This document shows positions 17,434 to 61,371 of a DNA stretch of 64,000 nucleotides, piece by piece. The stretch covers positions 32,001 to 96,000 of the IMG/VR virus record IMGVR_UViG_3300032330_001742. One strand, given 5' to 3'. The notes beneath the pieces are model-generated. The model saw nothing but the letters and a program-made list of their open reading frames with translations, was not told the DNA's origin and searched no databases. Positions within the stretch are counted from its first letter, which is position 1. Every line of letters starts with the position of its first letter. This DNA comes from a virus (Duplodnaviria > Caudoviricetes). A program made the position numbers and the translations under genes.

Positions 17434-17724
17434 ATGAAGAAGCATGAGTGGAAAGATGATGCTCTATGCTTAGAATATGATACTAATCTATTTTTTGATA
17501 AATATGAGGAAGATGAACTTCTAAGACCAGCAATAGATAAACTATGTTCTAACTGTCCAATTAGTAAAAATTGTTTTGCTGTTGGTATAACTGGAAAAGA
17601 GTGGGGAGTATGGGGTGGTGTTTATCTAGAAGGTGGAGAAATATCTAGAGAATTCAATAAGCATAAAGATAAAGCAACATGGGGAGATACATGGAAGTAC
17701 TTAACAATGGAGTCAGATAACTAA
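17434..17724 (+). CDS. whiB: WhiB-family transcription factor
   Basis: W..DALC...LFF...CSNCPISKNC...GVWGG: four Cys plus the G(V/I)WGG turn. Confidence 0.9.
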   Translation: MKKHEWKDDALCLEYDTNLFFDKYEEDELLRPAIDKLCSNCPISKNCFAVGITGKEWGVWGGVYLEGGEISREFNKHKDKATWGDTWKYLTMESDN

Positions 17725-18823: not shown

Positions 18824-18864
18824 AAAATAGGCTAGGAGAATAAAACCTCTTAGCCTATTTTTTT
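18824..18864. terminator. bidirectional intrinsic terminator
   Basis: AAAATAGGCTAGGAG-loop-CTCTTAGCCTATTTTTT between convergent genes. Confidence 0.8.
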
Positions 18865-19570
18865 ATGCCTCAAATAGGTTTGTAAAGATTGGCTTGTATG
18901 GAAAGTCTAAGCCTTTTCTTCTGGTATCAGTTTCTTTTTGATCACCAAAATAAAAAAATGAAACAACTGTCCATCTAGGATTTCCTGCAGTAATTTCAAG
19001 AATCTTGTGTTCATATGAATATGCTGAAGGAAAAATAAATAACTGACCCGCTTTAGGTTTAATTGTAACTCCAAAGTGAATAAACTCTAGTTCACCACCA
19101 ACATAATCATCATTAGGATAGTAAACCATAGATACAGTTCTTGGTGTTGCTAACGTATCATCTGCATGTGCACCAAAAAATTCTCCATTAGAGAATCTAG
19201 AAATACGCAAACTTTCTCTGCTTTTTGGATCTAGGTTCCAATGGTATAAATATGAGTTTACTGGACCACTAAACGCATTGTTTGCATCTGGATAGTTGTA
19301 CACCCAGCATGTATCAGATTGCTTACCATTTTCTTTTGTATATTCCAAATCATCAAAAAAATCTTCTCTAACCCATTTTTTATAACCTGGCTTATCACTA
19401 TTCTTTTCCCAAAATTCTTTTGTAAGTGTTTCATTAAAAAACTCCATTGAGTTTGGCCAAACATTATCATATATGTGCATTCCTGGAAATGGGGTTGTAA
19501 ATTTAAACTCATTACCATTTTGGTCTACAGTCACCCCACGGGCTGCGTTATTCAATCTTTGTTGATCCAT
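18863..19570 (-). CDS. 2OG-Fe(II) dioxygenase (prolyl-4-hydroxylase-like)
   Basis: HADD, YPNDDYVGGEL, FPS..YEH, RWTVV. Confidence 0.85.
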   Translation of the reverse strand: MDQQRLNNAARGVTVDQNGNEFKFTTPFPGMHIYDNVWPNSMEFFNETLTKEFWEKNSDKPGYKKWVREDFFDDLEYTKENGKQSDTCWVYNYPDANNAFSGPVNSYLYHWNLDPKSRESLRISRFSNGEFFGAHADDTLATPRTVSMVYYPNDDYVGGELEFIHFGVTIKPKAGQLFIFPSAYSYEHKILEITAGNPRWTVVSFFYFGDQKETDTRRKGLDFPYKPIFTNLFEA

Positions 19571-25294: not shown

Positions 25295-26711
25295 TAATAG
25301 ATTGCTTGTATGTTTTTTCCCATAGTTTAATGTCATTTTCGTCATTGAGCAAAGGCTGCCCCTTAATGTTTAAACTAGTATTAAGTAAAACTGGTACACC
25401 AGTTTCTAGATAAAATTTATTAACTGTTCTCCACAAGCCTCTATGATCATTTCTATTTACTGTTTGCACTCTAGATGTTCCATCAGCATGAACAACTGAA
25501 GGAATTTTTTCTGGTTGTAAACACTTAACAGTGTATTGCATATAAGGAGATGAGAAATCCATATCAAACCATTTTGACGCACACTCTTCTAAAACAACTG
25601 GAGCAAATGGTCTAAATAGTTCACGTTTCTTAATCATGTTTACTTTATCTTTAATGTTTGGATCTCTTGGATCAGCCAAAATTGACCTATTGCCAAGTGC
25701 ACGAGGACCATACTCTGCTCTACCAGTAGCAACAGCAGCAACTCCATCTTTTAATATTGTATCTACTATCTTTTGTACTGGGTATTCTCCACCAAGATCA
25801 TAGCCAAGATAAGGAGTTTCCCAATCAAGGTGCTTGCCATAAAGTGCTGCAGCAGCACCTAAAGAACTACCAGCATCACCTGGGTTTGGCATAATCCAAA
25901 TCATATCGAAAAGTTTCCATAGCGCTGTATTAGCAGAAGAGTTGAGTGCACAACCACCCATAAAAACTAAATTCTTTTTACCAGTGATTGCTTTTGCTTC
26001 TGCCATAAACTCCATAAGCCTTGTCTGGTACACAACCTGAACAGCAGCAGCAATATCAAACTTATCTTGTTCGCCCTTGATCCATCCCCAGTCAGTTATA
26101 CCTTTGTGAAAGTTATAAGACTGGCTGCGAAAGTTAGGGAAGTACTCGTCAACTTCCTTATAGTATCTACGCCAATCACCGTATGCAGCCATGCCCATCA
26201 TAATGTACTCTTCTTGGTTTGGCATTAGACCAATCAACTGTGTAAATGCAGAGTAGAACAAACCAAAACTAACAGGATAGTTTTGCTTATATTTTAATTT
26301 AATCTTATCACCTTCGCCTACCCAAACGGTAGATGTATTATATTCTCCAATTGCATCTAAGACTACAATTACTGCATCATTAAAAGGACTAGTATAGTAT
26401 CCTGCAGCAGCATGTGAATAATGATGACCAAAAGATTTTCTAGGTACATTAGGAAGGTCAAAGCGTGGCTTCCAATCCCCTGAACCACCCTTTATAAGCA
26501 GCCTGGAGGCCTTTAGAAGGGGTTTTTCATAGTAGGCTATACGATCTGGTAGGCCATGCTGTAAAGCATCATTAACTAAACTATCATTAACATACCAATC
26601 GTTTTTGTTTTTGCTATATCTTTCAGCATGTCCAGCAAATAATATTTTGCCATCTTCAATTAATGATACAGATGCATCATGTGAAGTTTCATTAATCCCT
26701 AAAATTCTCAT
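25287..26711 (-). CDS. NodU/CmcH-family carbamoyltransferase
   Basis: HDAS, HHYSHAA, GGCALN, DAGSSLGAA, EYGPRALGNRS, RPFAP, LNTSLN. Confidence 0.93.
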   Translation of the reverse strand: MRILGINETSHDASVSLIEDGKILFAGHAERYSKNKNDWYVNDSLVNDALQHGLPDRIAYYEKPLLKASRLLIKGGSGDWKPRFDLPNVPRKSFGHHYSHAAAGYYTSPFNDAVIVVLDAIGEYNTSTVWVGEGDKIKLKYKQNYPVSFGLFYSAFTQLIGLMPNQEEYIMMGMAAYGDWRRYYKEVDEYFPNFRSQSYNFHKGITDWGWIKGEQDKFDIAAAVQVVYQTRLMEFMAEAKAITGKKNLVFMGGCALNSSANTALWKLFDMIWIMPNPGDAGSSLGAAAALYGKHLDWETPYLGYDLGGEYPVQKIVDTILKDGVAAVATGRAEYGPRALGNRSILADPRDPNIKDKVNMIKKRELFRPFAPVVLEECASKWFDMDFSSPYMQYTVKCLQPEKIPSVVHADGTSRVQTVNRNDHRGLWRTVNKFYLETGVPVLLNTSLNIKGQPLLNDENDIKLWEKTYKQSIIR

Positions 26712-27376
26712 TCGGCACCAGTAGAATCTCTTTTGTCTTTTAGCGGTATATTGTGATACCAATTTGGAAGAGCATATCTTGGCCCTTTTGTTACGGGATA
26801 GACCTCATGAACATACAAAAAGTTTGATGGGAAGAACAAAACACTTCCAGCCTTTGGCTTAAACTTTAATCCAGAGTGTCTAAATTCAATCTCACCACCT
26901 TCATAGTCATCATTTAGGTATAGTAGTACAGATAGAACTCTGCTACTTATCCCCTGATCTTGGTGGGCTGGTAAATGACCACTTTTATCATATTTCAAAA
27001 GATGCATTGTATGTTCTCTAGACTTAATATTCTTTTCAGCAAATGGGTATAGTTCTGTGGTGTAATGGTTTAATGTTTTATCTAATGCACCAAAAAGTTG
27101 TGACGAAATGCTTGCTTGCTCTTCTCTATAAACATCATTGGCTGGTATGTGTTCAACTTGTGGAATAAACTTTTGCCAACAAAACATTAATTTATTATCG
27201 CCTTCACCATATGTCCAAGCAACCCATGGCTTAACAGATGTTAGTTGAGGCTGTTTATCTTTTTCATATCTAGCATCTAATTCTTCAATTTGCTTAATCA
27301 AGGATGCAGGGTCTTTAATCACATTTGTATAATAGGCAATTCCTAAATCTAAAGTTTCAACATTAAATTCTTGCAA
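26708..27376 (-). CDS. 2OG-Fe(II) dioxygenase (P4H-like)
   Basis: HQD, YLNDDYEGGE, HEV.PV..G.RY. Confidence 0.88.
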   Translation of the reverse strand: MQEFNVETLDLGIAYYTNVIKDPASLIKQIEELDARYEKDKQPQLTSVKPWVAWTYGEGDNKLMFCWQKFIPQVEHIPANDVYREEQASISSQLFGALDKTLNHYTTELYPFAEKNIKSREHTMHLLKYDKSGHLPAHQDQGISSRVLSVLLYLNDDYEGGEIEFRHSGLKFKPKAGSVLFFPSNFLYVHEVYPVTKGPRYALPNWYHNIPLKDKRDSTGAE

Positions 27377-28887: not shown

Positions 28888-29655
28888 TTACCTTTCGAGT
28901 GTATTGTTTAGTCGTGCTTCTTCATAAAAATCAAAACGGCACCAATTAGAAAGTGTATACCTTATACCTTTTGTAATAGGAGTAACGCCATGCACATAGT
29001 AAAGGCTTCCTGGAAACATCACTATTGATCCTCGTTCTGGTTTAAAGTGATAGTCAAAGTCTGGAAAGTATAACTCTCCGCCTTCAAAGTCGTCATTTAT
29101 ATATGCAAGTATTGCTAAATCACCACTCCACATGTTAGGCCAAGTCTTCAATTGTTCTTCTTGGCTTGGTCCCTCATCATGATCTGGATCATTATTTACA
29201 TAATGAATATCTAATATGTCTGTATGTGGTGCTAAATATGTATTCTCTGGATGAACCATCATCATACATTTTTGATCTGTAAGATTAGATAGTTTTTCAT
29301 TCCATTCTTTTGCTGCAAAATCAATCATTCTTTTGCTCATCTTTTGCATAAACTTTTCATACTCAAAAGTTACTTTTGGCTTGTCATGGAATCCACGTGC
29401 CAATGTGAGTGGATAGCAGTGAGTGCGTTCAGACATAACCTCGTACTCTTTTACAATTTCCATAAACTCTTGAATTTCATCTTCAGTAAGGAAGTTTTTA
29501 ATATATACAATGTTGTCAATACCCGTTCCATATTTTTCTGTAAATACATCTGCAACCTTTTTATCTTGTTGCCCTTCAAAAAAATAAGGTCTTGGCGTAT
29601 CAATACTTTTAAAAAGTTCATCTAGAACTGGTGTTTGAAATGGATAATTGCTCAT
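28888..29655 (-). CDS. 2OG-Fe(II) dioxygenase (P4H-like)
   Basis: HTD, YINDDFEGGEL, HGV.PI..G.RY. Confidence 0.88.
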   Translation of the reverse strand: MSNYPFQTPVLDELFKSIDTPRPYFFEGQQDKKVADVFTEKYGTGIDNIVYIKNFLTEDEIQEFMEIVKEYEVMSERTHCYPLTLARGFHDKPKVTFEYEKFMQKMSKRMIDFAAKEWNEKLSNLTDQKCMMMVHPENTYLAPHTDILDIHYVNNDPDHDEGPSQEEQLKTWPNMWSGDLAILAYINDDFEGGELYFPDFDYHFKPERGSIVMFPGSLYYVHGVTPITKGIRYTLSNWCRFDFYEEARLNNTLER

Positions 29656-51144: not shown

Positions 51145-51831
51145 TCAATACTGTAGATGGTTGTTTGGCAATTCATCTACGTGATATTGATGATCTCTAT
51201 TAAAGAAATATTGAGTAGAATATCTAGATCCACTTTTTACTGGTTCAATGTTATGGTATATGTGTGAAGGGAAAACAACCATATCTCCAGCAACTGGCTT
51301 ATACACATATGGTGGCTTTAATACATAAGGATTATTTAGATCTTGTTCTGACATCTCATTTTCTTGTTCTAGAGTTGGATCAATAAAATTCAACTCCCCA
51401 CCTTCAAAATCATCATTCCAATAGAATACACACGACATAGTGATAGCAGTCATTCCGCCTTCTAGTCCAAAGTGTTTGGTATATGTTCCAGTTGGAATAT
51501 CTCTATGTGTTCCCAACCACATGCCCTCAATTCTTTTATCGACAGTTAGCATTTCTTGTCCATATGTTTCTAGATAGTTTGGTTTTTCTAATTTGATGTC
51601 ATCTTTTTCTAGTTCAAAGTCTCTAGTGATTTTTGGAAGTATTGTGTTATGAGCCATCAAAACTGCTTTTGCTACTGGCACAGGCAAAAACTCTCTTAGT
51701 TGCAAAACTGGAGTATCAGTACAAACACTTTGTGTTAAAATTTCATTTGGGTAAAGTTCAAACATTTCCATAGATCTTTTTATGATAGACTGATCTATTG
51801 TGTTCTTATAAATTCTAACTTGGTTTTTCAT
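51145..51831 (-). CDS. 2OG-Fe(II) dioxygenase (P4H-like)
   Basis: HRD, YWNDDFEGGEL, FPS..YH.IEPV.SG.RY. Confidence 0.85.
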   Translation of the reverse strand: MKNQVRIYKNTIDQSIIKRSMEMFELYPNEILTQSVCTDTPVLQLREFLPVPVAKAVLMAHNTILPKITRDFELEKDDIKLEKPNYLETYGQEMLTVDKRIEGMWLGTHRDIPTGTYTKHFGLEGGMTAITMSCVFYWNDDFEGGELNFIDPTLEQENEMSEQDLNNPYVLKPPYVYKPVAGDMVVFPSHIYHNIEPVKSGSRYSTQYFFNRDHQYHVDELPNNHLQY

Positions 51832-52040
51832 ATTTTGATTATACCATATTTACTATATATAATATATATTATATAAACCCTTTAGAGATAGTTCTTTTTC
51901 TTATATATATTAAAGTATACACTATTGATAACTGTGACAAATATATCTATAACCTGACAAAATGGACATTATGAATTGTAACAATTTGGTAAACTTTTAT
52001 ATCAATGTCCAAATAGTCCTGATATGATATACTTTTAAAG

Positions 52041-52086
52041 TACCTAGGATAGTCTCATCATACCCACCTATCCTAGGTATTTTTTT
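52041..52086 (+). ncRNA. promoter-driven stand-alone hairpin or terminator
   Basis: TACCTAGGATAG-15 nt loop-CTATCCTAGGTA-T7, directly after TGATATACT. Confidence 0.45.
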
Positions 52087-52111
52087 GTAATTTAATGGTA
52101 TAATCAATGTT

Positions 52112-52489
52112 ATGACTATGTGTGGACCTGAAATTTTTGGTGCTAACCCAGTAAAAATTAAATGGAATGTTGTTAGAGGAGACTCTGCGTCCTTGAGAGT
52201 AGAGTTTTTAGAAAATGATGAACAGACTCGTTTTTCTACATCTGGATGGACATATAAAGCAAGTGCGTATGATCCAAAAGGTGACACAATTGATGAATTA
52301 GAAGTTGTCTCACATAATGGATATATTGATATAAAAGCAACTCCAGAAATTACTCAGTATTGGGGTACTGGATATACAACACAGGTAGCAGAACTAACCT
52401 TTGATCTTGAAGTAACAATTGACGAAGTAACTTGGACACCAGTAATTGGAACTGTTCTTGTTTATGGTGATATTTCGGGGTCACTATAA
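52112..52489 (+). CDS. virion/tail-associated Ig-like protein
   Basis: WNVVRGDS...FDLEV...WTPVIGT; related to 53322 and 60973. Confidence 0.55.
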   Translation: MTMCGPEIFGANPVKIKWNVVRGDSASLRVEFLENDEQTRFSTSGWTYKASAYDPKGDTIDELEVVSHNGYIDIKATPEITQYWGTGYTTQVAELTFDLEVTIDEVTWTPVIGTVLVYGDISGSL

Positions 52490-52584
52490 TGGCAGTAGTA
52501 AGAGTTACAACACCTAGGCCAGAATTACCACCAGTAATAAAAATTGAAAACAAAACTTATAAAATAAATAAGTAGAGGAGAATT

Positions 52585-53304
52585 ATGGTTTCTAAAAGTG
52601 TAGATTTTCCTAAAAGTGCATATGCTTCTCAGGTTCTTCAACAACAAACGCCATCTACAGATGTAGCAACATACATACCAGTACCTGGGCCAGAAGGACC
52701 AAGAGGTTTACAAGGGCCAAAGGGGGAGCCAGGAAAAGATGGTGCTCCAGGAAAAGATGGAGAACGTGGACCAAAAGGGGATAAAGGGTTTAAAGGTGAT
52801 CCAGGACAAAGTTCATTATCTTCTTCTGGACAACAAGCAGGTTGGGCTTCTTATACAAATTTAAATTCACCAGAAGCAAGGCTTGGTATTTCTAAAGGTG
52901 ATGATGGATGGGTATCACTTGAACTTGCAGAAAAGGGATCAGTTAAAAATGAAACATTTATGCCAAGTTCTTCATTTGGAACAAGCCTATACAATTTTAA
53001 CTCAAAATCTTTAACATTTAAACCATTAGAGATTGGCTCGATTGTAAATGTTACATATAATTTTGAATTAACCACATATACAAATAATACAGAAGTTTGG
53101 TTTAGAACAAATTTCCCACTAGCAAAATCTTCAGCATCTAAACTTGTTGGGTCTTTTAAGTATCAATACGTTTATGATATTTCTGTAGATCAACAGTTCT
53201 TTATTGAAAATCAAGGTATTTGGGGGTCTGGAGGAGTACCACAAATAAGAACAGATTTTGATGCAATAGCAATTTTAAAAAGCATATATGTTTCTGTTGT
53301 CTGA
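52585..53304 (+). CDS. collagen-like repeat protein (fiber)
   Basis: Contiguous Gly-X-Y run GPEGPRGLQGPKGEPGKDG... Confidence 0.85.
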   Translation: MVSKSVDFPKSAYASQVLQQQTPSTDVATYIPVPGPEGPRGLQGPKGEPGKDGAPGKDGERGPKGDKGFKGDPGQSSLSSSGQQAGWASYTNLNSPEARLGISKGDDGWVSLELAEKGSVKNETFMPSSSFGTSLYNFNSKSLTFKPLEIGSIVNVTYNFELTTYTNNTEVWFRTNFPLAKSSASKLVGSFKYQYVYDISVDQQFFIENQGIWGSGGVPQIRTDFDAIAILKSIYVSVV

Positions 53305-53321
53305 CGTGGTATAATAATTCT

Positions 53322-53756
53322 ATGGCATTTCCAGCAACTTATAACTTTTCTTACTATAAAGGTGATACCTTAGAGTTTAACATCTACCCTAAAAAGGCAG
53401 ACGGAACAGTTTTTGATTTATCTCCATTTTTGCCATCCTATGATAATGATAATAATCAATCAACGCCAAATATCGTTTATGATACCTCAAAGTTTGTTTT
53501 TTCTTTATCTAGGGGCTCTTCTGGCACTTCCTCTCAAGTAACTTGTTTTTCAAAAATATCTAATGATGCAACACACATACTGTGTGCAATTAGGCCAGCA
53601 GACTCAGTTTCAATGGTTGCAGGAACACAGTATGTTTATGATGTTCAAGTTTCTACAAATACCTCTTCTAATGGCTATCCAATTGTCCATACACTTTTGA
53701 CAGGGGTAATAACAGTAACTGATCAAGTGGCAACAGGATATGGAACTCCAAACTAA
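53322..53756 (+). CDS. virion/tail-associated protein
   Basis: YKGDT..F, YVYDVQV, TLLTGVITVTDQV (BppU-N-like). Confidence 0.55.
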   Translation: MAFPATYNFSYYKGDTLEFNIYPKKADGTVFDLSPFLPSYDNDNNQSTPNIVYDTSKFVFSLSRGSSGTSSQVTCFSKISNDATHILCAIRPADSVSMVAGTQYVYDVQVSTNTSSNGYPIVHTLLTGVITVTDQVATGYGTPN

Positions 53757-54346
53757 TGGTAGATGTAATACTTTCCAATGAAGATTTAAGTATTTTGGGT
53801 GGTCCAGAAACAGTAAATGTTGAAGTTGATTTTGGTGCAACTGGATCACGAGGAAGCAGAATATTTGTTAATTATGGCCAACCAGTAGTAGGGATTGATG
53901 GTCTTACATCACTAGCCCCAGACTGCAATCTATTTGACCTCTATATAAATATTCAAAGTACAGATGATGAATATCAGTTTGTTTATCAATATCAAAATGT
54001 TCTTGGCACATTAACTTGGGTTAAACTTTTTAAACTAGTATCAACTATTCATAGCAAAAATTATTCAGATACTTCTTTTGTATCTGGAACATGGACAAAA
54101 AATATTCCAGTAATAGATGTTTTGCCTTTAGATTTTGTTGGAACAGCAGAATCTGCCAACTTTAATATTCAATATACTATACTAGGTGAAAATCCAATTG
54201 CTTCATCTTTATCTATAGCAGAAATATCAACATCTAGCGGAGCACTGGTATTGCCTTTAACTATCAAAGCAAAAGAGTTTGTTGATGGGGCCTGGTCTAG
54301 TTTGTCTGGTACAAAAACAGTACAACTCTTTATTACTATGGTATAA
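53756..54346 (+). CDS. virion structural protein
   Basis: VDFGATGSRGS motif; structural-gene context. Confidence 0.55.
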   Translation: MVDVILSNEDLSILGGPETVNVEVDFGATGSRGSRIFVNYGQPVVGIDGLTSLAPDCNLFDLYINIQSTDDEYQFVYQYQNVLGTLTWVKLFKLVSTIHSKNYSDTSFVSGTWTKNIPVIDVLPLDFVGTAESANFNIQYTILGENPIASSLSIAEISTSSGALVLPLTIKAKEFVDGAWSSLSGTKTVQLFITMV

Positions 54347-54354
54347 TCTTATGT

Positions 54355-54780
54355 ATGGCTACAGAAAATATAGGCTCTTTATACCCAACTAAAATCCCTG
54401 GATTTGATGAACCAGCCGATATTCAGGCAGCCCTTAAACTTTATCATTATGGAACAACAGAAACAGTTTCTACAACAAATGACATTGTTGCTAATTCAGT
54501 AACTGGACATTTTAAGGCATTGGATGAAAGAGTTTCTGATCTTGAGTCTGATGGAATTGGATCTTCTATTTTATCTTCACAGCCAACAGGCGTACACGAT
54601 GGTTATATTTGGATTGATTCTACAAGTTCTGGAACAAGTCAGGTTCAATATGCACAAGCATCTTATCAGACCTCAGAACCAACAACTCCAACAATGGGAG
54701 CACTTTGGGTTGATTCAGATAGTACACCATTAACACTTTATGTTTGGTCTGGATCTGCATGGAGAGAGATTGGTGCATAA
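54355..54780 (+). CDS. tail-fiber-associated protein
   Basis: ADIQAALKLYHYG; P..G.LWVDSD; YVWSGSAW. Confidence 0.55.
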   Translation: MATENIGSLYPTKIPGFDEPADIQAALKLYHYGTTETVSTTNDIVANSVTGHFKALDERVSDLESDGIGSSILSSQPTGVHDGYIWIDSTSSGTSQVQYAQASYQTSEPTTPTMGALWVDSDSTPLTLYVWSGSAWREIGA

Positions 54781-54891
54781 TGGCTAAAGAAAAAACAACA
54801 GAAGAACAACTTCGTGAAAGCGGTATAGCAAAATTAATTTCTGCTACACAAATCACAGAAGCAGAGTTAAGAGCACTGGGGTTGACATCAA

Positions 54892-55521
54892 ATGGCAGCA
54901 ATTGATAATAGCGGAAAAGTAGCATACATTTATAGTCAAGCAGATAATAAATGGTATTCAATTGCTGGAACAGTTAATCCAAATGCATCTTATACTTGGA
55001 CAGCAAACCAACAGTTTTCAGCACCAGTAAATTTTGATATGGTAATTAATGCAAAAGCAGGCGTAAATAATTTTGCTAATCCAACAGCAAGAGATGCAGC
55101 ACTTACATCTCCTACAAATGGTTTGGTTTGTTTTGTTAGACAAACAAACGCTGGATCAGTAATAAATCAAATTCAATATTACCACAATGGTGAGTGGAGA
55201 TGGATAGGAGATTCAGCAGATCTCTCTTTAAAGACATCTAGTTTTACAATTACAAAAGATGATGCTGGGAAAACATTAAATGTTAGTTCTTCTTCAGACG
55301 TTGTAGTAACAATACCAGCAAATAGCACAACACCTTTTATTAATGGACAAAAAGTTGAAATTGTAAGAACTGGAACAGGTAATGTTTCCATTGAGGGCGC
55401 AGTTGGAGTTACAATAAATAGTAAGAATTCAAATAAGAAAATTTCTTCACAATATGTTGGTTGTGTATTAGTTAAAATAGATACAAATACCTGGTTGCTA
55501 ATTGGCGATCTGACGGCGTAG
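54892..55521 (+). CDS. tail-fiber-associated protein
   Basis: ARDAALTSPTNG; VTIPANS..PF..G; K..TNTWLLIGDL. Confidence 0.65.
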   Translation: MAAIDNSGKVAYIYSQADNKWYSIAGTVNPNASYTWTANQQFSAPVNFDMVINAKAGVNNFANPTARDAALTSPTNGLVCFVRQTNAGSVINQIQYYHNGEWRWIGDSADLSLKTSSFTITKDDAGKTLNVSSSSDVVVTIPANSTTPFINGQKVEIVRTGTGNVSIEGAVGVTINSKNSNKKISSQYVGCVLVKIDTNTWLLIGDLTA

Positions 55522-55528
55522 GTAGAAG

Positions 55529-57040
55529 ATGCTAAATTTATTTCAATGGGCATCAAAAGGAATGGTAGCAGTACCAAATCTATCGACATTGACAATTACT
55601 CAAGCACAAACACTACTTACTTCTTTAGGTCTTGGTTTTATAAACTCTGGTTCTTCATCAACATATAATATTAATTTAGATACAACTATTGCAACACAAT
55701 CAATTTCTGCAAACACCCTTGTTGATTATGGAACAAATATTAGTTTTACTTATTATGCATACGTAACTCCAGTTCCTACCCCAACTCCTACCCCTACACC
55801 TACACCAACGCCTACACCAACGCCTACACCAACGCCTACACCAACGCCTACACCAACCCCAACCCCTACACCAACTCCAACACCTACACCAAATGGTGTT
55901 GAATATTACATAGGAACATCTGCTTGTGCTGGAACAAGTGGGCTTTATTACAGTAGCCCATCAGTTTCTGGCCCATATTATTCCTCATCAATTCCATCAG
56001 ATACAAGTTCTTATTCTAATGCAGTTGTAACAAAAACAGTTTATAGATCAACATCTGCAGCAGCATTAGAGGCAGCAAAAAATGTTGCATGTGAAAATGT
56101 AACGCCTACTCCTACCCCAACTCCTACACCTACACCTACCCCAACACCTACCCCAACACCTACCCCAACCCCTACCCCAACCCCTACACCTTCACTTCCA
56201 ACATGTCCAGGAACTCAAACAAAAGCAACATCTTATACATGTAATGAATTAGGTTTGGTATATCTTGGAGGACCATCGGACTATCAGGTTGGTGTTGGAT
56301 ATCAATGTTGTGGTGGCGCAATTCCTACCCCAACTCCAACGCCTACCCCTACACCTACACCAACGCCTACACCAACTCCTACACCAACACCTACACCAAC
56401 TCCTACACCAACACCTACCCCAACACCTACCCCAACACCTACACCATATTCATTTACAACAACAGTATATGGAATTAGATGTATTTCTGGTGACACATTT
56501 ATTAGAGTTTTGCCAGGGGATGGAACTATAAATGTAGATGAAAATAATGGTGTTATTACACTAAAGGACAAAGATGGTAACACCGTTGCAAAACAGGCTA
56601 AAGATATAGTTATTGGTGATGAAATCATGACCACATCTTATTCTGAAATTGATCAAAACTCTCCAGATTACGAAATGTTCAATTGGAGTTCTGATTCTTT
56701 GACCTTTATAGAAAATGCTAAAACAACAATTGTTGATATTCAAGAAGATAATAAGAATCAGATTGCATACTTTAATAATGATCAATCAGCAAAATTTACA
56801 CTAGAGCATCCAATTTTAGTTAATAGAAAAATTAATAACATTGATGATTGGAAATTCTTGATGGTTGCAGAAATTGAAGTAGGAGATATAATTGTTAAGT
56901 ACGATTCAGAACTGGGAGTTTATAATAATGTGGTCATTGAATCAATTGACTTAATTCCATATGCAGAAACAGTTTATACATTTAGTGCTGAGCCAGTAGA
57001 TTTAATTATTGCTGGAGATATCATTACTCACAATAAGTAG
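55529..57040 (+). CDS. PASTA-like domain, three Pro-Thr repeat tracts and a C-terminal Hint (BIL-like) domain
   Basis: VAVPNL..LT..QA..LL..LGL; (PT)n three times; CISGDT at codon 318, FTLEHP block B, terminal IITHNK. Confidence 0.8.
55763..56445 (+). repeat. three coding hexanucleotide (Pro-Thr) tandem tracts
   Basis: CCWACN repeats at about 55763-55891, 56102-56191 and 56323-56445. Confidence 0.9.
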
Positions 57041-57045
57041 CGCAA

Positions 57046-57618
57046 ATGATTAAAGATCCTTATTTGATTCAAAATGTTTTATCTGACCAAGATTTATCAA
57101 CACTATCTGACTACGCTTTCAAACTTTGGGAAACTGATAAAAGTACATACAATGAAGGTTTTGGTAGGCACCAATGGGCAATATGGGGAAATGATTTACC
57201 AGAAAAACTTCTTCCATTAAAATACATTCATACTAAATTGACAAAATTAGCAAAAAAAGAATTTGATTCAGAAACGCTTAAGCCTTCTTGGTGCCTGCTA
57301 AGTATTTATGAGGGTAAAGAGGCAAAACTTTGGAAGCATAAAGATGATAATGCTTGTACATATCATATAAATTTAACTTTAATTTCTAAAACCCCTTGGG
57401 ATTTTTATGTAGAAGGAGAAAAATTTACACCAGTCCCAAATGAAGCAGTTATTTCTTATGGAAATGATCAAGAACACTGGAGAGAACAATTTCCAGATCC
57501 AGAAAATAATTTAGTTTGCAATGCATTCTTTTTTTATTGTGAGCCAGAGCATTGGTATTTTACAAAAGGACCTTCTTATTTATATACAGACATAAGAAAA
57601 GAAAAAACAAATGGATAA
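57046..57618 (+). CDS. 2OG-Fe(II) dioxygenase-like protein
   Basis: LWKHKD, WDFYVEG, YG....HWRE. Confidence 0.75.
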   Translation: MIKDPYLIQNVLSDQDLSTLSDYAFKLWETDKSTYNEGFGRHQWAIWGNDLPEKLLPLKYIHTKLTKLAKKEFDSETLKPSWCLLSIYEGKEAKLWKHKDDNACTYHINLTLISKTPWDFYVEGEKFTPVPNEAVISYGNDQEHWREQFPDPENNLVCNAFFFYCEPEHWYFTKGPSYLYTDIRKEKTNG

Positions 57619-58528
57619 AATTTTTATAAGTATTGCAGCCTATAGGGATCCAGATTTAGTAAATACAGTAAAAAGTTTTTATGACAATGCATATAATAGA
57701 GATAGTTTATTTTTTTCTTTAGTCTCTCATGAAGAAGAAGATAATATTTTAGATTTTAGTTTTTTACCAAAAAACCAATATTCTTATCAAAAAATTGATT
57801 ATCGTTTAGCACAAGGAGTTTGTTCTGGAAGATATTTGGCAAACTCTTTGTTATCATCAGATTATAAATATTTTATGCAAACAGATTCACATTCTAGAGT
57901 TATTAAAAACTGGGACCTAGAAGTAATCAAATGTTATATAAAATGTAAAAATAAATGGGGAAATGATTTTTTATTTACTAAATACCCACACGGATTTAAT
58001 TTTGATTGGAGCCTAGGTGACTATATAGCAGTTTTACCAGAAAATAATAACACTTTACACAAGGTTGTACCAGTATGGGATGATTTTGAAAGTTTATACT
58101 TACTTGAATGGAAGGAATTAGAAGATACAGAGTTTGGAGATTTAGTTTATGGCTTTGCTGCAAACTGTGTATTTGGAAGTGCAGTTGCTATGTTAAAAAT
58201 ACCATATGATCCTTTTTTGTATTTTCATGGAGAAGAAATTACCTTGGGAGTTAGGGCTTATATAAACGATGTTCCCCTTGTATCGCCACCAATTAATTTT
58301 TTATACACAAATTATGATAGAGAAAATGGCAAAAGAAATTTTCACTGGGAAGATGATATAAGTTGGTCAATAAGGGATAAATATTCAAGAATTAGAATTA
58401 ACAATATTTTTAAAAAGAAAAATTTGGGAATTTTTGGTTTAAATGATTTAAATAAATATGAAGAACTTCAGAAAAATAGTGGAATAGATTTTGAAAATAA
58501 AACTCATATTAAAAATATTTATAGGTAA
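57611..58528 (+). CDS. Gnt1-like (Skp1 hydroxyproline GlcNAc-transferase, GT60) glycosyltransferase
   Basis: IFISIAAYRD, G.C.GR, YFMQTDSHSR...WD, PYDP.LYFHGEE. Confidence 0.8.
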   Translation: MDKIFISIAAYRDPDLVNTVKSFYDNAYNRDSLFFSLVSHEEEDNILDFSFLPKNQYSYQKIDYRLAQGVCSGRYLANSLLSSDYKYFMQTDSHSRVIKNWDLEVIKCYIKCKNKWGNDFLFTKYPHGFNFDWSLGDYIAVLPENNNTLHKVVPVWDDFESLYLLEWKELEDTEFGDLVYGFAANCVFGSAVAMLKIPYDPFLYFHGEEITLGVRAYINDVPLVSPPINFLYTNYDRENGKRNFHWEDDISWSIRDKYSRIRINNIFKKKNLGIFGLNDLNKYEELQKNSGIDFENKTHIKNIYR

Positions 58529-58557
58529 ATATGCTATACTTTTTAAAAGGGGTAAGA

Positions 58558-58761
58558 ATGAACAAAAAAACAGTTAAGCCTTGGGATTTGCTAAATCCTA
58601 ATAAGCCAAGATCTAATGATGAGATTGCAAAAGAAAGATATGACATTTGTAATTGGTGCCCAGAGTTTATTTCACTAACAAAACAATGTGCAAAATGTGG
58701 CTGTTTTATGCACCTTAAGGTAAAACTAGAAGAAGCAACATGTCCGTTAGGCAAATGGTAA
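58558..58761 (+). CDS. small Cys-rich protein, paralog of 50641
   Basis: RYDICNWC...CAKCGCFMHLK......CPLGKW. Confidence 0.7.
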   Translation: MNKKTVKPWDLLNPNKPRSNDEIAKERYDICNWCPEFISLTKQCAKCGCFMHLKVKLEEATCPLGKW

Positions 58762-58844
58762 TGAAATTATTTAATAGAATTATATTCAAGTATAAAGAAT
58801 ATAAAAAATATAAAAAAATAAAAAAGGGAACTTGGATATATTAA
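58761..58844 (+). CDS. 27-aa Lys-rich peptide
   Basis: MKLFNRIIFKYKEYKKYKKIKKGTWIY; TAATG-coupled at both ends. Confidence 0.55.
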   Translation: MKLFNRIIFKYKEYKKYKKIKKGTWIY

Positions 58845-59791
58845 TGTTTTTTGATATATTTAAACCTGGTATCGTACCTCATAATAGACCAAACAGTAAT
58901 TATAGGTCTAGTGTTCTTGCTACTCATGCAGAGATAGAAAGATCAGAATACAACTATGACTGGAATTCTGACGGTATAAGATCTATAGAGTTTTCAGAAA
59001 AACCACCAATCGTAACGCTTGGTTGCTCTATTACTCTTGGTCAAGGATTACCTATAGACTTAATTTGGCCAGAAATGCTTGCTAAAAAAATCAATTTAAA
59101 AGTTGGAAATATATCATATAGTGGTGGATCTATTACTCAAATTATTTCAGGATTTTTTGGAATGATTGCTCAATATAAATACAACCCAGAGTATGTAATT
59201 TGTAATTTTCCACCTTTTGATAGGTTTTATTTTATAAATGGCAAAGGTGATCAACTTAAAGACTACAGGGCTGGTGTAAAAAAAAGAAAAACAAAGGATT
59301 CTGCGCCATGGGACTATGGTGCAACTATTCCATATGAATGGGCATATTACAGTAATTTGAATGCTTTGCAAATGCTTGAATCCTTCTGTGACTCAAATAA
59401 TATTAAACTTATCTGGAGTACATGGTCAAATGCATTGTCTGAAGATCAAGAAGATTTTCTTATGGATAATTTTCAACACTATGTTAAAGACCCAGTAAGA
59501 AAAGAGTTTGCCCCACATTTTGAGTTCTGGGTTGATTCAAAAACGGTAGATGCGTTAGATGTTTTTTATAAAATGAAAAACTGGGATAAAGTTCAATGCC
59601 ATACCAAAGAATTTATGATGCACAAAGAAATTTTTAATTATGCTTATGACTATCACAAAATAGGAGAAGCCCCAGATAAAGAGAAAGTTATTACTCGAAC
59701 TCCTCATCCAGGGCTTCACAAGCATATTCATTACGTTGATTTTTATTATAACGAAATGTTAAAAAATGGTTTTAAAGAGGGAACTTCTTAA
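58844..59791 (+). CDS. SGNH/GDSL-like protein
   Basis: WNSDGIRS, LGCSITLGQG, NISYSG, C-terminal PHPG..H. Confidence 0.55.
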   Translation: MFFDIFKPGIVPHNRPNSNYRSSVLATHAEIERSEYNYDWNSDGIRSIEFSEKPPIVTLGCSITLGQGLPIDLIWPEMLAKKINLKVGNISYSGGSITQIISGFFGMIAQYKYNPEYVICNFPPFDRFYFINGKGDQLKDYRAGVKKRKTKDSAPWDYGATIPYEWAYYSNLNALQMLESFCDSNNIKLIWSTWSNALSEDQEDFLMDNFQHYVKDPVRKEFAPHFEFWVDSKTVDALDVFYKMKNWDKVQCHTKEFMMHKEIFNYAYDYHKIGEAPDKEKVITRTPHPGLHKHIHYVDFYYNEMLKNGFKEGTS

Positions 59792-60332
59792 TCCACATCT
59801 TTGTTTTAGCAGTAAGTCCATGCCAAGAGGACCAGTCCTGCCCACCGTTAGACATCCAGAACGCAACCTGTGCATTGATTACTGGATTGAAAAGATCTTG
59901 GTTATCACTAAGACCAAACTTTTTAATTCGGTCAGGACCAAGATCTCGGATCATATTAATTTGAAAGAGACCATATGATTTGTCTCCTGTTTTACCATTT
60001 TTGTTAAAAGCATATGGTCTACCATTACTTTCTTTTTTAGACACAGCCCAAGCCTCTTTTAGATCTTTTCCTCTAAAACCAACTTGGTACAAAAGGTCTT
60101 TTAGTTCCTTGTCTGTCAATGAGTCATGACTAACATATTTTGTTAGTTTACTAAGATTTGCAGTTCTAGAAACCAAAAAAGCCCCAGAAGGGGCTATCAC
60201 GGGCTGGACCTGTTCACTCTTAGTATTTGATGTAACTGTTACTGCATTAGCATTATTTGAAAAAACGGCAAACATGCCAGTCACCGTAAGTATTCCAATG
60301 ATTACTTGTTCTTTAAATTTCTCGTTCATCAT
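59772..60332 (-). CDS. lysozyme-like/lytic transglycosylase with signal anchor
   Basis: AWAVSKKESNG, SYGLFQINM, LFNP..NA. Confidence 0.8.
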   Translation of the reverse strand: MMNEKFKEQVIIGILTVTGMFAVFSNNANAVTVTSNTKSEQVQPVIAPSGAFLVSRTANLSKLTKYVSHDSLTDKELKDLLYQVGFRGKDLKEAWAVSKKESNGRPYAFNKNGKTGDKSYGLFQINMIRDLGPDRIKKFGLSDNQDLFNPVINAQVAFWMSNGGQDWSSWHGLTAKTKMWIKKFPL

Positions 60333-60446
60333 AGTTTCCTCCTTAGAAAACAATAACACCTTGGTAGGTGTCTAGTATTAAGTATAACATAATTTTACCC
60401 ACTTTTAACCTAAAAGTCAAGTTTTACCGTGGTATAATTATTTATT

Positions 60447-60953
60447 ATGGCAACAACTAATGATGGATTGTTTAATTTACCTTTTCCAGAGTCAACTGAT
60501 CCTGTTAATGTTCATGGTGATATAAAGGCTTTAGCAGATAGATTAAGGATTGTTTTACCACCACTTGGAGTATCTGCTTTTCAACTTCCAGTAATAAATG
60601 ATAGTGGACAAACCTTAAATGCTGGAACTCCAGTTTATGCAAAAGGTTTTACAACAAAAACAACCATTGACAAATATTTGCCATCAAATACAAAACATGT
60701 TTTAGGATTACTTAAACAAGGATTAACAAATGGGTCCGAAGGTATTTGTATTGTTGCTGGAGTTCTAGAAGGTGTTAATACTTCTTCTTTTGCAAATGGA
60801 GATATTTTATATGCAGCCCCATCTGGTGGACTAACGGTAACACCTGACGGAGCAGCAGTTGGCATTGTTGCCCATGCAGCATCTTCTGGAATTATTGTTG
60901 TGCAAGCAAAAGGCAACGGTACATGGGGAGCATTAAAGGCAGGGCTATCCTAA
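60447..60953 (+). CDS. virion structural protein
   Basis: LPFPESTDPVNVHGDI; G..Y...GGLT. Confidence 0.55.
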   Translation: MATTNDGLFNLPFPESTDPVNVHGDIKALADRLRIVLPPLGVSAFQLPVINDSGQTLNAGTPVYAKGFTTKTTIDKYLPSNTKHVLGLLKQGLTNGSEGICIVAGVLEGVNTSSFANGDILYAAPSGGLTVTPDGAAVGIVAHAASSGIIVVQAKGNGTWGALKAGLS

Positions 60954-60972
60954 TGAATGGTATAATCTAATC

Positions 60973-61371
60973 ATGGCAACAACTCGTGGAGCAGCATCGT
61001 CTTATGATATTGGTAATAAACCACCTACAGTTATTTGGACAGTAGTTCGTGGTGATACTTCTGGTTTTAGAGTATATGCAACTGATGATGCAAAGCAACC
61101 ATTAAATATTCCTGATTGGGATATATCCATGAAGTTTAAAAGACCAGTATTAAACCCTGGAGTTATTTCAGATAATGCAACACTGGTTTTCACACTAACC
61201 CCAGCACCAGATGATGATGATCAAATTGGCGAGTTTACTGTATGGTTGACTGCAGCCCAATCTGCTCAACTTGAAACAGGAGACATTTTCGATATTCAGT
61301 TGTCTGACCCAACAAGAGTTTGGACTGTTGCTCAGGGCAGCATGAAGATTCTTGAAGATGTAACAGATTAA
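60973..61371 (+). CDS. virion/tail-associated Ig-like protein
   Basis: WTVVRGDT...FDIQL...WTVAQG; paralog of 52112. Confidence 0.55.
   Translation: MATTRGAASSYDIGNKPPTVIWTVVRGDTSGFRVYATDDAKQPLNIPDWDISMKFKRPVLNPGVISDNATLVFTLTPAPDDDDQIGEFTVWLTAAQSAQLETGDIFDIQLSDPTRVWTVAQGSMKILEDVTD

Follow-up and report, generated by a model that had tools for sequence, protein, structure and literature searches.

Within a 64,000-nt window of viral DNA (bases 32001-96000 of a 116,064-bp viral record rated complete by CheckV), the genes at 55529-59791 are likely to form a virion-fibre glycosylation cassette. They encode a protein with long Pro-Thr (PT) tracts and a C-terminal Hint domain, a 2-oxoglutarate (2OG)-Fe(II) oxygenase of an unnamed family (OXY), a glycosyltransferase of family GT60, a Cys-rich DUF6171-like protein and an accessory protein. 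An earlier sequence-only reading had proposed that these genes place modifying enzymes beside their substrate and build a glycosylated stalk on a fibre through hydroxyproline (Hyp); the GT60 identity and a conserved linkage to Pro-rich proteins speak for that proposal, whereas the oxygenase could not be established as a prolyl 4-hydroxylase (P4H) and GT60 proved to be exchangeable. We put at about even the chance that the cassette modifies the adjacent Pro-rich fibre appendage, and consider a genuine Hyp-glycosylation system a minority prospect.

All open reading frames (ORFs) of the sequence-only reading were recovered on the + strand at the same positions, and the tight coupling it described was confirmed for the first four genes, with successive junctions consisting of a 5-nt gap (+5), an 8-nt overlap (-8) and a 2-nt gap (+2). 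The cassette genes are:

55529-57040, + strand: PT/Hint protein, 503 aa, proposed substrate and modular fibre appendage
57046-57618, + strand: OXY, 190 aa, 2OG-Fe(II)-oxygenase fold, unnamed family
57611-58528, + strand: GT60 glycosyltransferase, 305 aa, PF11397
58531-58761, + strand: DUF6171-like Cys-rich protein, 76 aa, C-x2-C...C-x2-C-G-C...C with a C-terminal GKW
58832-59791, + strand: accessory protein, 319 aa, possible SGNH/GDSL-type esterase or acyltransferase

The tail-gene setting was also correctly recognized, as collagen-like and fibre PHROG matches flank the cassette on both sides and further fibre genes follow after 60447. Its neighbours include:

52585-53304, + strand: collagen-like fibre protein, PF01391, 13 G-X-Y triplets, kept in relatives
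54892-55521, + strand: tail-fibre-type protein, 209 aa, PHROG tail fibre, minor tail and virion structural matches down to E 8.5e-20
59772-60359, - strand: SLT_3 lysozyme-like gene (PF18896, E 1.7e-16), right border of the cassette and border in 77 related loci

Promoter and terminator scans of 51500-61000 gave sites no more numerous than in shuffled sequence, and megablast of the cassette region against phage records gave no match.

Among the 154 ORFs of the 116-kb genome, the PT/Hint protein is the sole one to contain a PT tract or to exceed 12% Pro. The three long (Pro-Thr)n tracts and the C-terminal Hint domain that had been noticed from the letters are both present, in the following arrangement:

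55565-55750, + strand: PASTA-like N-domain, aa 13-74 (PF03793, E 2.7e-5, 24.5 bits against a cut-off of 23.2)
55775-55891, + strand: (Pro-Thr) tract 1, aa 83-121
56102-56191, + strand: (Pro-Thr) tract 2, aa 192-221
56324-56446, + strand: (Pro-Thr) tract 3, aa 266-306, ending 11 residues ahead of the Hint Cys
56480-57037, + strand: Hint domain, Cys318 to Asn502-Lys503, from profile matches and motifs

The PT stalks alternate with Ser/Tyr-rich and Cys-bearing segments. At the DNA level the tracts are imperfect 6/12-nt repeats (76-90% matches), and the PT repeat therefore appears to be maintained at the protein level. An orthologous N-terminus with Pro-rich tracts occurs in loci L004, L010-13 and L112. 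A Hint profile built from eight homologues matched inteins (E 1.3e-6) and the bacterial intein-like (BIL) domain 2lwy (4e-5), and the domain carries Cys318 in R/CISGDT (the slash marking the junction), TLEH at 424 and a THN-K end; the single-sequence Pfam match was under cut-off. A splicing intein was ruled out, as Lys503 alone stands between Asn502 and the stop codon. Because the +1 Cys/Ser/Thr nucleophile is absent, cleavage or transfer rather than splicing is expected of the predicted domain. It resembles BIL and Hedgehog-type Hint domains in its C-terminal location, Cys1, TxxH block, terminal HN and lack of a +1 nucleophile, and differs from them in following a Pro-rich tract and being linked to modifying enzymes.

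The constant core and its exchangeable modules

The cassette was compared across 80 viral loci whose OXY is 61-78% identical to that of the window. These were recovered with an OXY alignment; a search for related loci with the single GT60 sequence returned nothing. A protein was counted as Pro-rich if it had at least 40% Pro in a 30-aa window and ended no more than 2.5 kb upstream of OXY. Such a protein was present in 53 of the 53 loci with at least 3 kb of upstream sequence, although these loci share ancestry and do not amount to 53 independent events; as background, 74 of the 822 ORFs of at least 150 aa in related loci carry a Pro-rich tract. The gene order runs from the Pro-rich fibre protein, sometimes through a small ORF, to DUF6171 (directly before OXY in 55/79 loci), OXY, a variable module and, on the opposite strand, SLT_3. 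The tracts are of PT, PTPVA and PFFPP types, interspersed with small Cys-bearing modules, and the N-terminal part preceding them varies, being a fused homologue of the window's 141-aa or 209-aa fibre proteins, PASTA-like, or FN3. In many relatives the homologue of the 209-aa fibre protein is fused to the Pro-rich region in one protein of 440-890 aa, so that this region is a C-terminal extension of a tail-fibre protein. Hint ends are found on the Pro-rich protein in 8 of the 53 loci. A Pro-rich protein also lies upstream of OXY in L003-8 and L112; in L006-8 it is a 168-182-aa protein with FN3, Pro-rich and Cys segments, which the gene caller had overlooked in L006.

The constant core is the Pro-rich protein with DUF6171 and OXY, and GT60, present in four subtypes, is one of several exchangeable modules. 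In the OXY-to-SLT interval of the 77 closed loci the modules are:

25 loci: 343-aa protein, SGNH-like protein and epimerase/dehydratase
20 loci: GT60 alone
12 loci: 343-aa protein and epimerase
5 loci: 343-aa protein, FkbM methyltransferase and epimerase
4 loci: two unknown proteins (259 aa and 222 aa)
11 loci: other combinations

The 343-aa family has an invariant H192-L-R194-L-x-D197 (HLRLxDH) and shows sub-threshold similarity to O-fucosyltransferases (PF10250, E 0.0017-0.005; POFUT2, 4ap5, E 0.018), and its partner is a clear member of the GDP-mannose-dehydratase/epimerase family.

The closest relative of the window's GT60 (73% identity) resides in L112, whose OXY is less similar to that of the window and whose cassette (PASTA/PT/Cys protein, DUF6171, OXY and GT60) adjoins a portal gene, a different synteny. 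This combination therefore points to a cassette that may move as a unit and a transferase that may move as a sub-unit. The pattern partly recurs in two diverged lineages. On the myovirus contig L094 (OXY E 1e-38), a 733-aa Cys-rich protein with a Hint end is followed by two ORFs, DUF6171 and OXY, its Pro-rich stretch being short (30% Pro in 30 aa); in L090, a TPPVGV-repeat protein lies two genes ahead of an OXY-PF13640 fusion. The contigs of the distant homologues P0160, P0172, P0135 and P0125 are too short to inform on neighbours.

Such variability raises the possibility that the genes have no functional link and are independent accessories that accumulated at a recombination hot spot separating the fibre genes from the SLT gene. 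The highly variable module content is in keeping with this, as is the abundance of oxygenases in the genome (5 PF13640 ORFs, 3 other paralogues and 2 DUF6065-like proteins). Start and stop codons nevertheless overlap or nearly abut, DUF6171-OXY fusions exist, and diverged lineages retain the order of Pro-rich protein, DUF6171 and OXY even where synteny differs, which makes chance assembly very unlikely.

The oxygenase, its probable DUF6171 partner and the GT60 transferase

OXY has no match in Pfam or NCBIfam, and searches of PDB sequences with the single sequence or a profile retrieved neither an oxygenase nor any other relevant chain. Its homologues are metagenome-derived and numerous: 202 in a word-indexed search, 785 cluster representatives at 50% identity (E no more than 1e-3) and 332 viral contigs. 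An AlphaFold2 (AF2) model computed from a 60-homologue alignment (mean predicted local distance difference test, pLDDT, 95; a single-sequence AF2 model of pLDDT 34 was discarded) aligns to 2OG-Fe(II) oxygenases at Z 15-17, and H98-x-D100 and H144, which match the HxD...H iron triad, are invariant in the OXY alignment. On this model we regard the 2OG-Fe(II) oxygenase fold as established. The dioxygenase call of the sequence-only reading, for which it had named AlphaFold as a check, thus stands as to fold, with a P4H identity no more than possible. The search against all representatives ranked structures as follows:

6n1f (function unknown): Z 17.2
HalB: Z 15.7
TaPHD: Z 15.5
DdPhyA: Z 15.1
PHD2: Z 15.0
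AviO1: Z 14.8
Pseudomonas P4H (PPHD): Z 14.8
SnoK: Z 14.6
ALKBH6: Z 14.2
vCPH: Z 13.2
AlkB: Z 12.1

SnoN reached Z 16.6 in a Foldseek-seeded list. Protein prolyl hydroxylases (TaPHD, DdPhyA, PHD2 and PPHD) are four of the seven best representative neighbours, and the ranking of the model leaves PHD/PhyA-type prolyl hydroxylases mixed with sugar- and free-amino-acid oxygenases.

The Cys-rich peptide at 58531, correctly picked out earlier, is DUF6171-like: it matched PF19668 under the cut-off (23.7 bits against 27, E 6.6e-5) and phrog_13558 clearly (E 1e-15), and the PF19668 annotation is already attached to its homologues and fusions. Six Cys and the C-terminal GKW are conserved in the family, the six Cys being invariant. 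Two distinct natural DUF6171-OXY fusion proteins (P0021 and P0037) and the adjacency of the two genes suggest that the DUF6171-like protein works with OXY, probably as a metal-binding partner. In L006-8 (L006:1047-1978, - strand) a further DUF6171 paralogue of 65-69 aa adjoins a 239-251-aa DUF6065-like protein, an arrangement that hints at partners for DUF6171 proteins in more than a single enzyme family; in L013, L020, L042, L059 and L075 the second paralogue was seen by itself.

The product of 57611-58528 is, from its sequence, a clear GT60/PF11397 member, as the sequence-only reading had anticipated in listing a PF11397 match among its checks. The match (E 2.2e-33, 116.6 bits against a cut-off of 21) covers profile positions 2-41 and 97-311 of 352, and the protein contains all three motifs noted previously (IFISIAAYRD, DSH and GEE). 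D92-S93-H94 and E208-E209 are invariant in 15 phage GT60 sequences of four subtypes, DSH being what we take to be the catalytic motif of Gnt1. On sequence inspection the protein opens directly at the catalytic domain, without an N-terminal extension. Searches of PDB sequences with the single sequence and with a profile found no relevant chain, and tblastn against phages retrieved four jumbo phages only, at 24-27% identity. Members of GT60 include Gnt1, which adds alpha-linked N-acetylglucosamine (GlcNAc) to Hyp of Skp1 in a PhyA-dependent manner, and the T. cruzi polypeptide GlcNAc transferase (PMC6939170).

Two jumbo-phage loci with GT60-like genes were inspected. In Xanthomonas phage Xoo-sp13 (L092:6001-9696) the gene lies near DNA polymerase, RNase H and NUDIX genes and the next gene is annotated as a carbamoyltransferase; in Stenotrophomonas phage RAS14 (L093:6001-9818) the neighbours are unannotated. 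These jumbo-phage genes may have a nucleic-acid or nucleotide-sugar role.

For the 319-aa protein, the SGNH-like assignment of the sequence-only reading persists as a weak lead only: GCS occupies aa 64-66 where SGNH/GDSL enzymes have GDS, and an Atlas lead scored 0.94, with Lipase_GDSL on 15% of that cluster, but no family matched in Pfam, NCBIfam or PHROG. The protein recurs often in the variable module, with 43 matching ORFs (E no more than 1e-4) in related loci. The basic peptide listed previously corresponds to a 27-codon Lys-rich ORF (58764-58847, + strand) in the AT-rich spacer between the DUF6171 and 319-aa genes and gained no support as a gene.

The proposed modification and competing explanations

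Decoration of the fibre appendage is the most economical reading because OXY and its Cys-rich partner, which would act first, are constant, the transferase is variable, Pro is common to all tract types, and both transferase families found in the slot include direct protein glycosylators. We infer that the PT/Hint protein would serve as an appendage of the tail-fibre set, its PASTA-like head followed by three extended Pro-Thr stalks and by a Hint end that processes itself. As long as this protein is in the cytoplasm of the host, OXY would hydroxylate its Pro-rich tracts, most probably converting Pro to Hyp, with the DUF6171 protein as its subunit or substrate-binding module. The soluble GT60 would then add an N-acetylhexosamine (HexNAc), probably GlcNAc, to the new hydroxyl or straight to Thr, and the 319-aa protein may trim or acylate the sugar. 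The product, presumably carried on the virion, would be a stiff, protease-resistant, mucin/extensin-like stalk. Related phages would retain the oxygenase and the Pro-rich substrate while exchanging the transferase module, and the glycan would accordingly differ between phages. By analogy with the Skp1 pathway, Hyp-GlcNAc is the leading but unproven chemistry. In its fullest form the proposal is one of Hyp O-glycosylation in the bacterial cytoplasm, in which a new oxygenase family with a DUF6171 subunit would convert Pro of PT, PTPVA and PFFPP tracts to Hyp, and interchangeable GT60 or POFUT-like transferases would install lineage-specific glycans on an extensin/mucin-like stalk diversified by module swapping; taken as a whole, this is tentative and rather unlikely to be correct in every part.

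A number of findings weigh against this proposal. No P4H Pfam family (PF13640 or related) matches OXY, whose family instead shows weak matches to the AlkB-like PF13532 (20 of 60 sequences, best E 3e-4) and to the Asp/Asn hydroxylase family PF05118. The top structural match, 6n1f, has no known function, and sugar-modifying (SnoN, AviO1) and free-amino-acid (HalB, BesD) oxygenases lie within 2 Z units of the OXY model. Strand 157-165 of OXY has no Arg or Lys, whereas the corresponding strand of PHD2 carries what we take to be its basic residue, Arg383; the invariant R146 and R41 of OXY might substitute. Because of the missing P4H match, the weak PF13532 and PF05118 matches, the mixed structural neighbours and the lack of a basic residue on 157-165, OXY is not classed as a P4H here and is assigned by sequence to an unnamed oxygenase family. 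Moreover, the genome has five true PF13640 ORFs that might supply prolyl hydroxylation. Since PF13640 genes sit beside OXY in L032-39 and L111 and OXY-PF13640 fusions exist, OXY may perform a separate, different oxidation. In L110:3-6351 a distant OXY domain is fused to PhyH behind a 1695-aa non-ribosomal peptide synthetase (NRPS) gene, with a phosphopantetheinyl transferase nearby; the OXY family is thus not confined to fibres, and a peptide or amino-acid substrate would also fit L110. As for the transferase, the co-occurrence of PT/Pro-rich, oxygenase and GT60 genes expected by the sequence-only reading holds for the Pro-rich protein with OXY, but GT60 occupies the OXY-SLT slot of only 21 of the 77 closed loci (31 GT60-family ORFs across the 80 loci), and in the close relative L013 the slot is without a transferase. 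Nor is the GT60 family always fibre-linked, since in jumbo phages of Xanthomonas and Stenotrophomonas the GT60-like genes reside in a replication module. Lastly, a Pro-rich protein free of Thr was sought among the loci examined and none was found.

That last observation bears on the main rival explanation, mucin-type glycosylation of Thr without Hyp, in which GT60 would place GlcNAc on Thr of the PT tracts while OXY and DUF6171 act separately, for example by hydroxylating Asp/Asn, Lys or aromatic residues of the Cys-bearing modules or of the surroundings of the Hint junction, or else by tailoring the sugar. The GT60 enzyme of T. cruzi acts on Thr of mucins, and Thr is present in the tracts of every Pro-rich protein examined. 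That GT60 includes a polypeptide alpha-GlcNAc transferase (PMC6939170) is likewise in its favour. The contact of OXY relatives with PF05118, the near-top structural matches of the sugar-tailoring SnoN and AviO1, and the PF13640 genes and fusions beside OXY, which suggest a distinct step, would all suit an unrelated role for OXY. However, OXY is constant while the transferase and sugar-nucleotide genes change, which fits action on the constant Pro-rich protein better; PFFPP-type tracts without Ser or Thr are common in the Pro-rich proteins; and the structures closest to OXY include PHD-type prolyl hydroxylases. On balance we consider Thr-linked GlcNAc with an unrelated OXY role unlikely.

The target might instead lie outside the phage proteins, be it phage nucleic acid, a small molecule, or a polymer of the host envelope whose modification would serve superinfection exclusion or receptor masking. 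The adjacency to fibre genes would then reflect only a hypervariable insertion site. The weak AlkB-like Pfam matches of the OXY family would accord with this, although AlkB-type structures, at Z 12-14, score below those of PHD type. So would the jumbo-phage GT60-like genes in a replication module next to a carbamoyltransferase, the distant OXY relative in an NRPS cluster, and the dehydratase/epimerase, FkbM methyltransferase and SGNH-like candidate, which also occur in polysaccharide pathways; the two transferase families of the slot, on the other hand, both include direct protein glycosylators. No PF00303 match was found for the thymidylate-synthase/dCMP-hydroxymethylase family, and PF12851 (Tet_JBP) matched only sub-threshold, inside PF13640 ORFs; therefore no route to DNA glycosylation through hydroxymethyl-pyrimidine was found. 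Given the absence of these pathway genes and the coupling and co-orientation of the cassette with structural genes, a non-protein target is less likely, and with the Pro-rich linkage invariant even under different synteny we regard it as distinctly unlikely.

Finally, the substrate might be the collagen-like fibre protein at 52585-53304, whose Y-position Pro or Lys would first be hydroxylated and next receive sugar, as happens in the collagen of animals and of mimivirus. Its 13 G-X-Y triplets have 3 Pro and 4 Lys at the Y position, the gene is conserved in relatives, and the viral collagen P4H vCPH matches OXY at Z 13.2. The gene is, however, 4 kb from OXY with five genes between, it is the Pro-rich protein and not the collagen gene that accompanies the cassette in L112 and L094, and collagen-like fibres are widespread in phages without such enzymes. 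We consider this substrate highly improbable.

Known systems and the wider genomic context

The closest parallel to the proposed fibre decoration is the Skp1 pathway of Dictyostelium and Toxoplasma, in which the cytoplasmic 2OG-Fe(II) oxygenase PhyA acts first and the soluble GT60 enzyme Gnt1 next (PMC6939170). OXY finds one of its best structural matches in DdPhyA, and the phage transferase belongs to PF11397. Unlike PhyA, OXY falls outside the P4H/PHD sequence family and has a probable DUF6171 partner, its presumed target is a fibre protein with long, repetitive Pro-rich sequence instead of a single Pro of Skp1, and no PgtA-, AgtA- or Glt1-type extension enzymes were seen in the phage, which moreover represents a bacterial-virus setting. 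The polypeptide alpha-GlcNAc transferases of T. cruzi and Dictyostelium have Thr/Pro-rich mucin-like repeats as substrates; they are Golgi type II membrane proteins that need no oxygenase, whereas the phage enzyme begins at the catalytic domain. They share the GT60 family with it (PMC6939170).

Plant and algal extensins and arabinogalactan proteins have TP/AP/VP repeats that are hydroxylated and O-glycosylated to give extended stiff rods. The PTPVAP and PT tracts of the phages look similar, a likeness for which homology is not claimed; the plant and algal proteins are modified in the secretory pathway by P4H and by GT31 and GT95 enzymes adding arabinose or galactose. In giant viruses, 2OG oxygenases (the lysyl hydroxylase/glucosyltransferase L230 of mimivirus and vCPH of PBCV-1) act on Pro/Lys-rich structural repeats, which mimivirus then glycosylates. 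Those are eukaryotic viruses with P4H- or lysyl-hydroxylase-family enzymes, unlike the phage with its other oxygenase family and GT60. Glycosylation of mycobacteriophage virions is directed to C-terminal regions of the capsid and tail-tube proteins and uses other glycosyltransferase families. As in the proposed cassette, the transferases are encoded by the phage next to structural genes and modify virion proteins while these are in the cytoplasm of the host (Freeman et al. 2023, cited in PMC12582341). The mycobacteriophage system is not known to involve an oxygenase, a Pro-rich repeat stalk, a Hint domain or DUF6171.

A literature search found no paper on DUF6171, GT60 in phage fibres or prolyl hydroxylation in phages. 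Pairs of a hydroxylase and a transferase are known from eukaryotes and giant viruses, and to our knowledge protein glycosylation that depends on an oxygenase has not been reported from any bacterial virus, nor did the literature search turn up a case. If the proposed fibre decoration is correct, it would give a function to DUF6171 and to the large unnamed oxygenase family, account for the hypervariable island that adjoins the fibre genes in these abundant freshwater phages, reveal a modular route by which phages vary the surface chemistry of their host-recognition apparatus, and provide small soluble enzymes for producing Hyp- or Thr-linked glycopeptides in bacteria.

A second cassette of comparable design lies outside the window (genome 98903-105203) and comprises an FN3/Hint repeat protein, oxygenase-like paralogues and a remote GT60-like protein. 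The FN3 protein has FGFSP-type repeats and a Hint domain, with the junction TTVYGIR/C (the slash again marking the junction) common to both cassettes. It is accompanied by a 223-aa protein, two DUF6065-like proteins, three paralogous HxH...H oxygenase-like proteins, and the remote GT60-like protein (hhalign probability 88%), which lacks the DxH motif. An hhalign comparison of the OXY profile with the oxygenase paralogues showed no relation. Judged from these sequences, the second cassette repeats the plan of repeat tract, Hint, oxygenases and transferase with non-orthologous enzymes, a recurrence that speaks for the decoration reading. On the contig L109 (4638-8464), which looks cellular and has a sigma-54 activator in the vicinity, a complete PF10250 O-fucosyltransferase-family gene is found about 1.3 kb away from two others, one encoding a distant OXY-PF13640 fusion and the other a second PF13640 protein.

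The PF13640 ORFs of the genome, assigned by Pfam, and a WhiB-like ORF are located as follows (window positions unless marked):

17434-17724, + strand: WhiB-like ORF, 96 aa, four Cys and a GVWGG motif
18863-19570, - strand: PF13640 ORF
26708-27376, - strand: PF13640 ORF
28888-29655, - strand: PF13640 ORF
51145-51831, - strand: PF13640 ORF nearest to the cassette (Pfam, genome 83202-83495)
genome 107323-107853, + strand: PF13640 ORF

The WhiB-like ORF with its GVWGG motif suggests an actinobacterial host. The GC content of the phage sequence is about 35%, and nine tRNA genes (Asn, Ile(tat), Gln, two Arg, Lys, Glu, Gly and Asp) are located within 11459-39759 of the window.

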